Source: Anolis carolinensis (lineage: Eukaryota). From it: a DNA stretch of 64,000 nt. The DNA is taken from the NCBI RefSeq assembly GCF_035594765.1, contig NW_026943821.1:18259608-18323607 (forward strand). Reading direction: 5' to 3'. Of this stretch, positions 20,341 through 27,105 are shown in pieces. Within the stretch, counting starts at the first letter, position 1. Each line of letters begins with the position of its first letter. A program made the translations under genes and the position numbers. The notes beneath the pieces are model-generated. The model worked only from the letters and a program-made list of their open reading frames with translations, was not told where the DNA came from and ran no database searches.

Positions 20341-20346
20341 TATAAA
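20341..20346 (+). promoter_or_regulatory. Candidate TATA box of the Cys-rich GPI-protein gene
   Basis: TATAAA 53 nt upstream of ATG 20394; overlaps the right TSD of a hAT element. Confidence 0.55.
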
Positions 20347-20393
20347 GTGCTCGCTTTGTGTGTTTGCCCCCTTCCTTATAGTTCTGCTTCACG

Positions 20394-23300
20394 ATGGTGC
20401 GGCCAATGTCTTGGATCCTTCCAGCTCAAGGTAAGAGACACTGTTCTGAACATATCGGAGAGGGAGGGCAAGAAAGACCATCCCTTTGGGGTTCAGGTCT
20501 AGGCTTTCCATCCTCTTCCTTCCTTCTCCAGGCCTTCTCCTCTTGTTCTGCCTTGCGCTGCAGTCGGACTCCTGGAACCCCAATGCGTCTGCGGGTGAGG
20601 AAAGGAACGAGGTGCACGAGGGCAAGGGAAGGCCTCTTCCTTCTGCCCCCAACTCAACGCCTTCTCTTTCAGAGCCCTTCACCAACATCACCCCACTTCT
20701 CTCCAGCAGCTCTGGGTTGTCAGCAGAGCTTGTGATGCCTGTAAGGAATACTAACCCTGACCAGAGTGGGGCAGGGAGGGGGCTCTGCCAAAGGGGCAGG
20801 GCTTTGGGTCAGGGTCCAGTGGCTTGGTAGTTCAGCCACTCTTGGTCTGAGACCAGATGGAAGCCCAGCTCCTCCTGCTCTCCTTGCAGCTGACCTGCCA
20901 GGCTTTCCAGTGTTTTGGCGAGAGATGCTACCAGGAGGCGGCAGTGGTGGTCCATGGAAACAGCTCATGGGAGTCCTGCCACAATGCCTCCCACTGCGAG
21001 GTAAGGGTCTGGGCCTTTGCCTTCCTGGGTGGGGGTAGTTTTTGCAGGGGGGGGGGGTCTCCTTAGATCCCTGAGCTACATCCCTGGAGTCAGAGGTGGG
21101 CCATGAAGGGACACATACTGCTATTCACAAAACATATTCACAAAAAAAATCACAAAATAATCATGAAACCATTCACAAAACATTCACATCTATATATATA
21201 AATGAGTGATGGCATCACAGCGACCAACAAAACAACAAAACTACAGGCCCCCCAATCTCGAAATTTGACAACACAATCCATCATCCATGCCTCTAGGTTG
21301 ATACAACAAAAAGAAAAGAAAAATAAAGTCCTAATTAGAGGGAAAGGAATAATTGTTTTTATCCAATTGCTGCCAGTTAGAACTCTGCCCACATGGTCTC
21401 CTAGCAACCAACTCAGCCCAGGGGGCAGGCAGACTTAGGCCTCTCTTAGGCCTCTTCCACAGATTATCTAATTTGCACTGGATTATATGGCAGTGTAGAC
21501 TCAAGGCCCTTCCACACAGCTATATAACCCATTTATAATGGACTTAATGTCAGGGGAAAACCTTGACCCTTTACCTTAACTACCACCAATTCCTCAATAG
21601 TTTATTTCCCATACCACCATACTTCGCCACAGCAACGCGTGGCCTGGCACAGCTAGTAAAATATATACACAAAAACATTTGCAAAACATATTCACAAAAA
21701 TATTCGCATAAAATATATACACAAAAATATTCGCATAAAATATATACACAAAAGTATTCGCATAAAATATATACACAAAAATATATACACAAAAATATTC
21801 GCATAAAATATAAACACAAAAATATATACACAAAAACATTTGCAAAACATATTCACAAAAATAATCATGAACCTATTCACAAAATGATCACAAAAAAATT
21901 ATTTATTTATTTTTATTAACAGCATTTATATTCCGCCCTTCTCACCCCGAAGGGGACTCAGGGCGGATCACATTGCACACATAAAGGCAAACATTCAATG
22001 CCATGACATAGAACAGAGACAGAGACAAGATGCAGGCACCGGGCTGGCCTCGAATTCATGACCTCTTGGTCAGAGTGATTTGTTGATTTGTTGCAGCTGG
22101 CTTGCTTTCCAGCCTGCGCCACAGCCCAGTCCTTTACAAAATTATATACACAATTGTATACACAAAAATGTTCACAAAAATATTTGCATAAAATATATAC
22201 ACAAAAGATTTGGAAATAATCATGAACCTCTTCACAAATATAATCACAAAAATAACAAAATATTTGCAAAATTATATACACAAAAACATTCACAAAAACA
22301 TTTGCAAAACATATTCACAAAAATAATCATGAAACTATTCACAAAAATATTCGCATAAAATATATACACAAAAATATTTGCAAAACATACTCACAAAAAT
22401 AATCATGTACCTATTCACAAAAAATAATCACAAAAATATTCACTAAAATCACAAAATATTTACAAAATTATATACTTAAAAATATTCACAAGAATAATCA
22501 TGAAACTATTCTCAAAAATATTCGCATAAAATATATACACAAAAATATTTGCTAAACATACTCGCAAAAATAATCACGAACCTATTCACCAAAAATAATC
22601 ACAAAAATATTCACTAAAATCACAAAATATTTACACATTTATATACACAAAAATATTCACAAGAATAATCATGAAACTATTCTCAAAAATATTCGCATAA
22701 AATATATACACAAAAAGATTTGTAAAACATACTCACAAAAATAATTGCAAACCTATTCACAAAAATATTCACAAAAATATTCACAAAATATTCACAAAAT
22801 TAAATACACAAACATATTCACAAAAACAATCATGAAACTATTCACAAAAATACATAAAATATATACACAAAAATATTTGCAAAACATATTCACGAACTCA
22901 CACACAAGTGGCCCTCCTTAAAATGGTCCTCTGCTAATGCTTCTCTTCCCTGCCCCACACCAGTTGATCCGTGTGAACAGCACCAGTTACGCAGCCGGGT
23001 GCAGCAGCGAGTGTGGGAACGGCAGCGCCGCAGTGATGTGTGGGGCCAACAGCCGTGTGAGCCTGGAGCCCTGCACTATGGAGTGTTGTGGTGCCCCAAA
23101 CTGTCTACGCCTCAATGCCACGGCATACGGTACTATAGTCGCCCAATGGGCTCTCCCATTCCATGCACCTGTGGCTCCTTGCACCCATCTCCTGATGCCC
23201 CCAAGGGCACCCACATCTCTCCAAGACTTCGACCAGCCTCTTTCTCTCTCTCTTCCAGGTGACCCATCGCCCATCACCACTACTACAGTTCTCACAACCG

Positions 23301-24093
23301 CCACCACTACCGCTACCACCACCACCACTACAGCAGCCCCCCAAAATGTAGGTGTTTCTTCCCTGGTTCTACAATGGCCTCAATGGCTACCACAGTGGGA
23401 ACACTGGCATCACTGGCATTGCCACCAATGGCTCCTGTATCCCTTCCTTTGGCTTCCTAGGGCAAAGTGTGCGGCCACTTCACCTGCCATGGAGAAGGGT
23501 GCTACCTAAGCCAGAGATCCTCCACGAGCTGCCATGTCGGCTATGATTTCTGTGAGGTAATGACACATTTGCCACCGACCCATCCCTTGACCCCGGCTAG
23601 GATTGTCAGAATGGCCTGCTCCAAACGCATCCTCCCCCTTCCCTTGTGGGCCTCAGGAGGGTGAAAAGCAGGGAAGCAAAGCCCACGGACTTACGAAATT
23701 CATAAGTCAACAGGTGATTTTGAAGGTACATACACACAACTTTAATATCACACATGGCAATATTCAAAAAACACTAGGAGAACATATCGTTCTCCCAAAG
23801 CTGGCTGTCAGATGAGGCCACTCCTCAACTAAACAACTTCAGGGACAGTAAAAAAATGGAACACGAACTCAGAAACTCAGCTCTGTGGCTGGGATGATAT
23901 CAGGGAGGCTTTCTATCTCAATACATTAAATAGGATTTTATTGAATAGATTCATGGCAAAGTTGGGAACCCCCGGTAGCGCAGTGGGTTAAACCCTTGTG
24001 CCAGCAGGACTACTGACTTGAAGGTTGGGTTGCTGACCTGAAGGTTGCCAGTTCGAATCCAACCCAGGGAGAGCGTGGATGAGCTCCTTCTAT

Positions 24094-24132
<39 letters not shown>

Positions 24133-25208
24133 TTTGCAGTATTTATATTCCGCTCTTCTCACCTCGAAGGGGACTCAGGGTGGATCACATTACACATATA
24201 AGGCAACCATTCGATGCCATAACCATAGAACAGAGACAGAGACAGACGCAGACACGGGTGGGCCTCGAACTCAGAGTGATTTGTTGCAGCTGGCTGCTAA
24301 CCAGCCTGCGCCACAGCCTGGCCTATCAGCTCCAGCTCCATGTGGGGACACGAGAGAAGCCTCCCACAAGGATAGTAAAAACATCAAAACATCCGGGCGT
24401 TCCCTGGGCAACATCCTTGCAGACAGCCAATTCTCTCACACCATGTCACTCCTGACATGAAAACAAAATGGCGAAGTGGTATTATAGTGTTTTATATATG
24501 TATTTTGAACGGCATGGTTCTAAATACTTTAAAAGCAATAAATCATGTTCGATCTGGACAGCTAAGCAGGGTCAGTCCTGGTTAACACTTGGATGGGAAA
24601 CTACCAACAAGGGCCAGGTGCTGTAGGCTATATTTCAGAGGAGGGAAATGGCAAAACTCTTGACTATTATTTCCCTAAAAAAACACCTATAAAATTCATG
24701 GGGGTCACTCTAAGTCAACAGGTAACTTGAAGGCACACACAGGAACTGAACCTGTTTTGAAAAACAATGCAATACCTTGGACAGATCCTTTGGGGTTCAG
24801 GCTAAAAATGAAACCCAGTGACCCCATTCTGCCCTGCCTTGTAAACGGGGACTGACTCCTTCCCTCCATACTGGCCTCCCTTGAACCAAGCCCTGGCTCT
24901 CCCTCTTTTGGGGCACAATGGGACCCCCAACATCTCTTTCGTCCTTCCAGATGAAGAAATCCGGGTCCACCTTTGTGGCCGGCTGCAGCAGAGTTTGCCC
25001 AGGGACGGGCACAGCCTGTGCGATGGGATCCAAGGGCCCTTGCTACCAAGAGTGCTGCTCAGCCAAACCCAGGGCCAGCTGCCTGCGACTGGATGGCAAG
25101 GTCCACCTCAATGGGGCAGGGGTTTTGGGGGCAGCAGCCCTGCCACCACTCCTGGCCCTCCTCAGCCTGACCTTTGCCTTCCCTCCCTTCCTCCTTGGGA
25201 ACAACTGA
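20394..25208 (+). CDS. Uncharacterised secreted/GPI-anchored glycoprotein with two tandem 12-Cys Ly6/uPAR(three-finger)-like domains and a Thr-rich linker, 8 exons, 295 aa
   Basis: Exons 20394-20430, 20532-20594, 20673-20740, 20890-21000, 22964-23129, 23259-23347, 23461-23556, 24951-25208; all GT-AG, phase-compatible, 888 nt with no internal stop. Hydrophobic N-terminus (WILPAQGLLLLFCLAL), duplicated Cys pattern, 7 N-X-S/T sequons, C-terminal NGAG followed by a hydrophobic tail. ATTAAA at 25390. Confidence 0.85.
21123..22900. repeat. A-rich, G-poor minisatellite (27-bp unit ~ACACAAAAATATTCGCATAAAATATAT plus higher-order variants)
   Basis: Visible tandem periodicity; interrupted by a Helitron (21189-21656) and a SINE (~21899-22129). 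Confidence 0.9.
21189..21656 (+). mobile_element. Non-autonomous Helitron
   Basis: 5' TC(TATATATATAAA), subterminal hairpin GCCACAGCAACGCGTGGC at 21626-21643, 3' CTAG; inserted between A and T with no TSD. Confidence 0.85.
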
Positions 25209-25629
25209 GACAGTACTAGTCAAGCACTGGGAAAATGTCCACAAAGCAACCACACCCCCACCCCAGTCAATGAGTATTGGGCCAGCCTTCAGTTGCTTCC
25301 ACTTGCTCCAGTATAACTCATTGAAATGTTTGGGGGTAGGTTTGATTTTAAGTTGCAACTGAATGTACTGAGCAATAGATATAATACACATTAAAATGCT
25401 AAAATATTAGTCACTTATGAACTCCTCTATAAGTCCTTTATTAAACTATGGAATCTGTTAGCAATCTGATATGTTTGAAAGGAGTGGTAGCTTCTTTTGC
25501 TGTAAATAGAAATACATCCACATACCAATTATTGTGCTTATTGTATATATCAGGGTCCCCAAACTAAGGCCCTCCAAGGTCATTTACCTGGCCCCTGGCC
25601 TAAACTTTATACTTAGGGTTGACCTAAGT

Positions 25630-26050
25630 CTACCTGGTCTTTGGAGGTCTCTTTGCTTACCTATGGCCTTATGAGATCGTCTAGATGGTCTTTGAAGATC
25701 TCTTTGCTTAGCTACGGCCTTATGAGACCATCTAGAAGGCTTTTGGAGGTCACTTTCCTTACCTATGGTCATATGAGACCGTCTAGATGGCCTTTGAGGG
25801 TCCCTTAACTTACCTATGGTTTTATGAGATTGTCTAGATGGCCTTTGGGGGACCCCTTTCCTTACTTATGGTCTTATGAAAACATCTGGATGATCTTTGA
25901 GGGTCCCTTTTCTTATCTATGGTCTTCTGATGGCCTGATGAGATCATCTAGATGGCTTTTGAGGGTCCCTTTCCTTACCGATGATCTAATGAGACCATCT
26001 AGATGATCTTTGGAGTTCTCTTTGCTTACCTATGGTCTTATGAGATCATC
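25630..26050. repeat. ~42-bp minisatellite (cttatgagaccatctagatggcctttgagggtccc...ttacctatggt)
   Basis: About ten degenerate tandem units following a hAT-like terminus at 25551. Confidence 0.8.
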
Positions 26051-26119: not shown

Positions 26120-27105
26120 AGAAGGTGGAGCTCCCCAATGCTTCCTCCTTGTCCTGGAAAGAAGTGACGAGTGGAGTGCCATCAGCAGGGCTCCGTCCTG
26201 GTTCTGGTTCTGTTCAACATCTTCATTAATGACTTAGATGAAGGATTAGAAGGCATGATCATCAAGTTTGCAGACAACACCAAATTGGGAGAGAGAGCGA
26301 ATACTCCAGAAGACAGGAGCAGAATTCAAAGCGATCTTAACAGATTAGAGAGATGATGGGCCAAAACTAAAAAAAATGAGTTCAACAGGGACAAAAGCTA
26401 GAATACAGGATAGCAGTACTTGTGAAAAAGATCTTGGAGTCCTCGTGGGGAAAAAGTTAAATATGAGCCAACAATGCAATGTGGTAGCTCAAAAAGCCAG
26501 CGGGATTTTGTCCTGCATCAATAGGAGTCTGGTGTCTAGATCCAGGGAAGTCATGCTCCCCCTCTACTCTACCTTGGTCAGACCACACCTGGAATCACAC
26601 TGTGTCCCATTCTGGGCGCTGCAGGTAAAGGGAGATGTTGTCAAGCTGGAAAGCGTCCAGAGGAGGGCGACAAAAATGATCCAGGGTCTGGAGAACAAGC
26701 CCTATGAGGAGCGGCTTAAAGAGCTGGGCATGTTTAGTCTGCAGAAGAGAAGGCTGAGAGGAGACATGATGAGGGCCATGTATGAAGATGTGAGGGGAAG
26801 TCATAGGGAGGAGGGAGCAAGCTTGTTTTCTGCTGCCCTGGAAACTAGGACGTGAAACAATGGCTTCAAACTACAGAAAAGGAAGGAGATTCTACGTGAA
26901 CATGAGGAAGAACTTCCTAATAGTGAGAGTTGTTCAGCAATGAAACACTCTCTCTGCCTCGGAGTGCGGTGGAGGATCCTTCTTGGGAGACTTTTAAACA
27001 GAGGCTATTTGTCAGGGGTGCTTTGAATGCGATTTTCCTCCTTCTTGGCAGAATGGGGTTGGACTGGATGGCCCACGAGGTTTCTTCCAACTCTAGGATT
27101 CTATG
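26120..27105 (+). mobile_element. CR1 LINE 3' fragment (degenerate reverse transcriptase and 3' tail)
   Basis: GSVL..VLFNIFINDLDEG...KFADNTKL, EKDLGVLV, LYSTLVRPHLE, LFSL.KRRLRGD-type motifs; ATTCTATG tail. Shorter CR1 pieces at ~32520-32745, 39880-40340, 40880-41820, 42390-43010. Confidence 0.92.

Follow-up and report, generated by a model that had tools for sequence, protein, structure and literature searches.

Proteins of the Ly6/uPAR (LU) superfamily act as modulators of nicotinic receptors and Wnt signalling, and of complement, lipases and fertilisation. In the LU domain as described, an Asn invariably stands directly after the last Cys, and the two exons are generally flanked by phase-1 introns and split at the tip of loop 2 (PMC6600238); a hydrogen bond of this terminal Asn has been described (PMC7582953). 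Six disulfides are found in LYPD6, LYPD6B and Lynx2 (LYPD1), with the loop-III pair nested within the seventh-to-tenth bond (PMC7582953). In the glycosylphosphatidylinositol (GPI)-anchored multi-LU proteins the first domain has eight Cys and is without the 7-8 bond (PMC6600238, PMC6337849), and every multi-LU gene in the human list of PMC6600238 is in the 19q13 cluster. For two-domain three-finger proteins (2D-TFP), Cys counts of 8/6, 10/8, 10-12/8 or 11/9 have been given (PMC11659521). Here we analyzed a 64,000-nucleotide stretch of the Anolis carolinensis genome (the window; contig NW_026943821.1, positions 18,259,608 to 18,323,607), which carries on its + strand LOC103280538, a gene of 8 exons with canonical AG/GT splice ends that encodes two Cys-rich repeats.

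Each repeat has 12 Cys, 5 in its first exon and 7 in its second, with a phase-0 intron directly after a shared C-E; the exon reading bore out the initial annotation in this respect. Both repeats fit the pattern C-x2-F-x-C-x-GE-x-CY ... AGCS-x2-C ... PC-x2-ECC ... CLRL[N/D], and their global alignment scored 121, while 500 shuffles gave a mean of -3.9 (standard deviation 11.7, maximum 38). The Cys spacing is 4,4,16,5,13,3,8,10,3,0,4 in domain 1 and 4,4,9,6,12,3,6,7,3,0,7 in domain 2. The CLRL[N/D] ending, which the initial annotation had made part of the signature, holds for both Anolis repeats but fails as a family rule, being mostly a lizard and bird trait; CC-x3-8-C is invariant across the family.

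To get an idea of the fold, domain 1 was modeled alone (pLDDT 72.9, pTM 0.64, 69 sequences). The structural comparison returned 41 chains with Z of at least 2, of which 39 were three-finger proteins; the best was Lynx1 (Z 7.0, root-mean-square deviation (rmsd) 2.8, 69 aligned), and the first unrelated chain had a Z of 2.9. When the entire protein was modeled (pLDDT 57.8), the comparison listed 43 rows, and the first 39 of them were three-finger proteins matched through domain 2, with uPAR as the best (Z 7.0, rmsd 4.8, 84 aligned). No significant match came from searching the PDB by sequence (best E 0.32 and 0.97). Match lists of this uniformity make the LU fold very likely despite the middling scores, and the models predict it for both repeats. 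The LU-like label of the initial annotation thus survived the structural comparison, while its separate domain type did not. Cys1-7 and Cys10-12 map onto the ten LU positions, with the two extra Cys in loop III; by analogy with LYPD6 and Lynx2 the disulfides would be 1-5, 2-3, 4-6, 7-10, 8-9 and 11-12. Among 179 domains (isoforms and near-copies included) we found no paired cysteine losses from which the pairing could be read, and many apparent absences of Cys4 in the Cys table are alignment shifts, the total still being 12.

The repeats nevertheless depart from the canonical LU signature, as the initial annotation had proposed. No match to the LU-type Pfam families PF00021, PF16975, PF00087, PF02988 and PF01064 was found in four exon translations and three proteins, in any of the 25 alignment members at E<=1, or in the bat, platypus, lamprey and coelacanth proteins, and these scans of exons and proteins found no existing Pfam family with the same Cys pattern. 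The residue after the last Cys was Leu in 156 of the 179 domains, Met in 16, another residue in 7 and Asn in none. This supports the non-Asn ending as a departure, although two PF02988 second exons in the Anolis genome, which are PLI-gamma-like, end in C-R, so the loss of the Asn has a precedent. Cys1 and Cys2 are spaced C-x4-C in all 144 twelve-Cys domains, as opposed to C-x2-C in canonical LU domains. The exon plan differs as well. Canonical LU domains and LOC103280538 share two exons with 5 Cys in the first, but the first exons of seven out of seven intron-bearing PF00021 matches and four out of four PF02988 matches in the Anolis genome end in phase 1, 7-9 codons past Cys5 (one more PF00021 match is intronless), whereas LOC103280538 is split in phase 0, one codon past Cys5. 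The difference in intron phase expected by the initial annotation therefore holds against 11 of 11 canonical first exons. Because there is no LU-type Pfam match, no Asn after the last Cys, a C-x4-C start and a phase-0 exon plan, we conclude that the LOC103280538 family is a distinct family within the LU fold. It is not a new domain type or fold. Its six disulfides, which the initial annotation had considered distinctive, are already known from LYPD6, LYPD6B and Lynx2/LYPD1 (PMC7582953); the part that stands is a family of its own.

As a side observation, the Anolis genome also contains an intronless 10-Cys LU gene with a signal and a GPI-type tail (C6:14965602-14965832), whose single-exon form presumably recalls Bouncer/SPACA4.

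LYPD6, LYPD6B and Lynx2 (LYPD1), GPI-anchored proteins with a single 12-Cys LU domain, are among the closest described systems, and LYPD6 and LYPD6B were compared by sequence. The Anolis proteins have 12 Cys spaced 2,8,8,6,18,5,4,10,2,0,4, in the same order as in the LOC103280538 family, with the extra pair in loop III and a GPI-type tail; the gaps differ. Domain 1 matched LYPD6B with Z 5.8, rmsd 4.8 and 83 aligned, and Lynx2 with Z 5.5, rmsd 3.4 and 77 aligned. On the other hand, LYPD6, LYPD6B and Lynx2 have a single domain with a C-x2-C start and a C-N end, and the three exons of Anolis LYPD6/6B split the Cys 4+4+4 by one phase-1 and one phase-0 intron, unlike LOC103280538. With no sequence match in either direction and exon plans that differ, membership in the LYPD6 group was rejected.

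uPAR (PLAUR), C4.4A (LYPD3), LYPD5, CD177, TEX101 and PINLYP resemble the LOC103280538 protein in their tandem LU-fold domains and are mostly GPI-anchored, and they matched with Z 5.4 to 7.0. Their genes form one cluster near ETHE1/XRCC1, while LOC103280538 lies between SF3A3 and INPP5B, and both of its domains have 12 Cys (domain 1 in jawed vertebrates) with a Thr-rich linker of 32-75 residues between them. We rejected membership in the uPAR cluster on the 12 Cys of domain 1 and the neighbours SF3A3 and INPP5B. The 2D-TFP, such as PLI-gamma and SPF, also have two three-finger domains, the first of which may end without Asn, but they are mostly secreted and multi-copy, with phase-1 introns in six of six Anolis exons examined; PF02988 and PF00021 matched none of the 25 members of the LOC103280538 family, and this membership was rejected too. 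A cluster of PLI-gamma-like two-domain genes is present on the same contig (C12, 12.5-13.0 Mb), about 5.3 Mb from LOC103280538. LYPD8, compared here by its description, resembles the predicted LOC103280538 protein as a GPI-anchored, heavily N-glycosylated LU-family protein (PMC5725809); it is described as mammalian, whereas the LOC103280538 family spans lamprey to bats.

The initial annotation had proposed that a two-exon module was duplicated. However, the LU exon pair alone runs from phase 0 to phase 1, so an in-frame duplication of the pair alone is impossible, and we rejected the two-exon module. The unit closes at phase 1 when the leading Ser/Thr-rich exon is included (phases 1-0, 0-0, 0-1), and this three-exon unit is present twice, as exons 3-5 and 6-8. 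The duplicated module must therefore take in the Ser/Thr-rich exon. In a tree of 50 domains (24 two-domain species and 2 single-domain teleost paralogs; only 83 columns, long lamprey branches, the newt omitted as the pattern failed on its sequence), the domain 1 and domain 2 rows were fully separated with support of 100/99, lamprey included, indicating that the repeats were likely duplicated before jawless and jawed vertebrates diverged.

Judged indirectly, from predicted proteins, the phase-0 split seems to be conserved across the family. Seven of the 20 listed first-exon motifs, in fragment and intron-reading models, continue with Val, as an in-frame GT donor would, and 25 of the 51 listed second-exon motifs, including those of orca and hippo, are preceded by an unpaired Gln, as expected of a CAG acceptor; in many of the other rows the pattern missed an intact domain. 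In one bichir isoform, the first exon of domain 1 is left out in frame.

Searching 1.84 billion representatives with a family profile resulted in 116 matches at E<=0.001. Names were sought for 29 of these and the query; 29 of the 30 were named, all vertebrate, and an invertebrate member is possible among the rest. The named relatives are from two lampreys, chimaera, skate, bichir, paddlefish, gar, teleosts, coelacanth, lungfish, newt, frog, birds and platypus, and, among mammals beyond platypus, from two Phyllostomus bats, orca, dolphin, hippo and Plecturocebus; turtle, snake and other lizard relatives came from separate protein searches. The composition is mirrored in automatic names, for example 'integumentary mucin C.1-like' and 'apomucin'. 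The bat proteins have kept both 12-Cys domains and the hydrophobic tail and lack the Thr-rich linker. In the orca, dolphin and hippo models several Cys are missing and there are frame changes or intron read-through, which suggests, on predicted proteins rather than genome alignments, that the gene has decayed in these species. The titi monkey model joins an intact domain-2 first exon to the start of INPP5B and is likely a primate remnant at the same locus, and in trout and another fish the gene models are fused to the INPP5B PH domain. Because fish and titi monkey models both join the gene to INPP5B, the neighbourhood is old.

Some members vary in their Cys or domain content. In amphibians (frog, salamander), domain 2 carries an additional, thirteenth Cys immediately ahead of the last one, possibly a free thiol or an inter-chain link, and lamprey domain 1 has 11 Cys, without Cys7; the bond that corresponds to it is lost from the first domain of mammalian multi-LU proteins. 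Teleost single-domain paralogs (shad and trout among those named) are domain-2-like and stand behind a long Ser/Thr-rich N-terminus. The Xenopus laevis model is without domain 1, while X. tropicalis has both domains.

The two repeats have diverged in their glycosylation sites. Anolis isoform X2 has seven N-glycosylation sequons (N30, N38, N80, N88, N98, N112 and N144), none of them in domain 2. The initial annotation had assigned all seven to domain 1 and the N-terminus; the count stands for X2, with the small corrections that N30 is probably inside the signal peptide and N144 just beyond the last Cys of domain 1. Isoform X1 gains an eighth from the retained intron 2. The asymmetry proved to be conserved family-wide: in 60 proteins with two pattern-matched domains (a redundant set in which one is a domain-1 tandem), the sequons of domain 1 outnumber those of domain 2 in 57 and equal them in 3, with medians of 6 and 1, and domain 2 has none in 21. 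The basic character claimed for domain 2 holds in Anolis (9 K+R against 5 D+E) but was rejected as a family rule, since domain 2 is net positive in only 35 of the 60 and strongly acidic in skate; like the CLRL[N/D] ending, it is for the most part a feature of lizards and birds.

Across 253 species pairs, non-Cys identity is 0.366 for domain 2 and 0.308 for domain 1, domain 2 being higher in 188. In loop II, Lys or Arg stands at Cys5+4 in 147 of 156 distinct domains and Tyr, Trp or Phe at Cys6-4 in all 156, and in the models the two residues face each other in register across the strands of the hairpin. The N- and C-terminal hydrophobic segments both reach 11-residue Kyte-Doolittle peaks of 2.4, and the candidate anchor site has Asn in at least 90% of 25 aligned sequences; from the hydrophobic ends and the N-G-A site, a signal peptide and a GPI anchor are predicted.

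On analogy with described LU proteins, we tentatively favour, at a probability of about 40%, a GPI-anchored surface modulator whose domain 2 binds a neighbouring membrane protein and whose sequon-rich domain 1 points outward. A protein with a signal-peptide-like start, two LU repeats, a Thr-rich linker and a tail with a predicted GPI anchor would expose its inner, membrane-proximal and glycan-poor domain 2 to a membrane partner in cis. Domain 1 would extend outward on an O-glycosylated stalk, as a glycan-covered spacer or a second binding site, and the cross-strand pair of Lys/Arg and aromatic residue in loop II would be the best candidate contact. GPI-anchored LU proteins of the same Cys count act on LRP6 (LYPD6) or on nicotinic receptors (Lynx2-like) (PMC6600238, PMC9410279). 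Which domain binds, and what partner, we infer from such likenesses.

Several observations weigh against this surface modulator. A shared fold shows no function, the structural scores are middling with no Z above 7.0, and Foldseek gave nothing under E 0.001 (best E 0.023 and 0.045). Hidden Markov models of the family failed to detect Anolis LYPD6 and LYPD6B even at E 100, which rules out a transfer of their functions on the basis of sequence. The bat orthologs, besides lacking the linker, have one sequon in domain 1, and the idea of a glycan shield thus fails for bats. In addition, the gap in conservation between the domains is small and reversed when Anolis is compared with certain species (gecko, Emydura, pigeon, skate), and the pair of basic and aromatic residues is found in both domains and may be structural.

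Other roles would explain part of the same evidence. LYPD8 is highly N-glycosylated and GPI-linked and binds flagella (PMC5725809), and an epithelial or mucosal barrier glycoprotein of this kind, GPI-anchored, heavily glycosylated, shed, and binding microbes or structures on their surface mainly via its glycans, would fit the 5-8 domain 1 sequons of most orthologs, the N-termini of fishes, frogs and birds, which are long, variable and rich in Ser/Thr, the mucin-like automatic names, which reflect the same composition, and the patchy loss in mammals, as of an environment-facing gene. However, bats retain both domains and yet have lost most glycan sites, and the gene is a single copy in the lizard and adjoins INPP5B in lizard, fishes and monkey. 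Rapidly expanding defence families are unlike this single-copy gene. We consider a barrier role somewhat unlikely. A surface protein of gametes or the reproductive tract, like the LU proteins Bouncer or TEX101, appears unlikely: the sauropsid non-Cys identity to Anolis of 41-69% is unlike the typical fast divergence of gamete-recognition proteins, even if lineage-specific loss is common among reproductive genes and TEX101, which has a reproductive role, was among the structural matches (Z 6.3). In favour of such a role, Bouncer is an LU-fold GPI protein that has one (PMC6600238).

Receptor ectodomains, GPIHBP1 and uPAR among the structural matches (Z 3.0 to 7.0) could point to a co-receptor or decoy for a secreted growth factor or enzyme, comparable to TGF-beta receptor ectodomains, GPIHBP1 or uPAR, in which two domains catch one dimeric ligand; the 32-75-residue linker would let them reach two sites. 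This we regard as quite unlikely, for the TGF-beta receptor rows score lower than the Ly6-type rows, the dense sequons of domain 1 argue against two equal binding sites, and single-domain forms exist in Xenopus laevis and as teleost paralogs. Highly improbable is the strong form of the initial annotation, a separate six-disulfide domain family of independent origin with LU resemblance only. The lack of LU-type Pfam matches in all 25 members at E<=1 and of significant PDB sequence matches, the intron phase and position unlike those of the 11 canonical first LU exons in the Anolis genome, and the missing terminal Asn would be expected from it, but the predicted strand order and the structural matches are three-finger in both domains, the Cys order matches LYPD1/LYPD6, the first exon carries 5 Cys with the intron still in loop II, and the predicted signal peptide and GPI-type tail are like those of LU proteins. 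Protein language-model neighbours that have a Pfam family are also LU-type, with scores under 0.9 that make them leads only.

The coordinates of the gene are collected in Table 1. The gene model of 295 amino acids is identical in every letter to RefSeq isoform X2, and its intron phases are, in order, 1, 1, 0, 0, 1, 0, 0. RefSeq isoform X1 (321 amino acids) retains the stop-free intron 2 in frame, which adds 26 residues after the predicted signal peptide; the small residues at -3/-1 of the signal peptide end are retained across sauropsid orthologs. In run X9, which we guess to be RNA, one contig of depth 3.5 joins 23347 to 23461 and 23556 to 24951 (GT..AG), so the split of domain 2 is really spliced; the domain-1 intron is based on RefSeq and homology. 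Runs X4, X7 and X9 have no contigs on exons 1-4 and the contigs of X10 are unspliced only, which is uninformative either way. The contigs of X4 and X7 end at 25410, 20 bases past ATTAAA, and one X9 contig reaches 25444. A protein search of the whole lizard genome returned this locus only, plus an E 0.1 match on the signal region (exon-wise searches are insensitive), and LOC103280538 is a single-copy gene in the lizard genome.

Table 1. Features of LOC103280538 in the window; position 1 is the first letter of the stretch.
Feature	Position	Strand	Remark
Coding exon 1: start codon, first part of predicted signal peptide, ends in phase 1	20394..20430	+	equals RefSeq X2
Coding exon 2: hydrophobic core of predicted signal peptide, A-S-A end, phase 1 to 1	20532..20594	+	
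Intron 2: 78 nucleotides, open in frame; retained in X1, spliced out in X2	20595..20672	+	
Exon 3: Ser/Pro-rich spacer, phase 1 to 0, opens module 1	20673..20740	+	
Exon 4: domain 1 Cys1-Cys5, symmetric, phase 0 to 0	20890..21000	+	
Intron 4: phase 0, cuts domain 1 one codon past Cys5; contains AT-rich tandem arrays	21001..22963	+	
Exon 5: domain 1 Cys6-Cys12 plus CLRLNATAY, phase 0 to 1	22964..23129	+	
Exon 6: Thr-rich linker, phase 1 to 0, opens module 2	23259..23347	+	3' splice in X9 contig
Exon 7: domain 2 Cys1-Cys5, symmetric, phase 0 to 0	23461..23556	+	both splices in X9 contig
Intron 7: phase 0, cuts domain 2 one codon past Cys5	23557..24950	+	
Exon 8, coding part: domain 2 Cys6-Cys12, conserved LDGxVHxN, candidate GPI site N-G-A, hydrophobic tail, stop	24951..25208	+	
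Candidate poly(A) signal ATTAAA	25390..25395	+	weak hint

Around the gene, the Pfam matches of the window follow the order LIM exons (FHL-type), SF3a60, LOC103280538, INPP5B (PH, phosphatase and RhoGAP pieces), a C2H2 zinc-finger gene, Sua5/YrdC and a C1orf109-like gene; from the human gene order we take FHL3 and MTF1 to be among these neighbours. At the 5' end, a TATAAA lies 53 bases ahead of the start codon (window 20341-20393), and a pyrimidine tract with an AG near 20381 resembles a splice acceptor; an older RefSeq model has an extra upstream exon. The tandem arrays of intron 4 have periods of 27 and 171 (window 21657-22893), intron 7 contains a high-copy interspersed repeat with very deep contig cover (window 23960-24450), and a 51-base minisatellite is located just downstream of the gene (window 25628-26050). 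The reading frame at window 26349-26855 is presumably similar to the end of a CR1-type LINE reverse transcriptase.

Searches of the open literature, among them look-ups in PMC10421932, PMC6337849 and PMC11659521, turned up no description of the gene; it may have been reported under another name. The protein set of PMC11659521 was built from PF00021, which the LOC103280538 family does not match. The family is real and pan-vertebrate, an unnamed variant within the LU superfamily and not a new fold. In its widest form, our view is of an ancient LU-fold receptor family missed by Pfam and by the LU surveys consulted: one gene that predates the jawed vertebrates, assembled from a three-exon mucin-plus-LU module that has phase-0 introns and lacks the hallmark Asn, present from lamprey to bats, lost independently in whales, hippo and primates, and binding a specific vertebrate receptor or ligand through a conserved loop-II surface. 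We hold this as a whole only provisionally, at somewhat less than an even chance.

LU surveys start from Pfam profiles or human genes, and a vertebrate-wide family that is invisible to these profiles and seems decayed in some mammals is a gap in the catalogue. The family shows that the LU fold can probably dispense with its hallmark Asn, and it provides an example of a gene that was apparently lost more than once among mammals.

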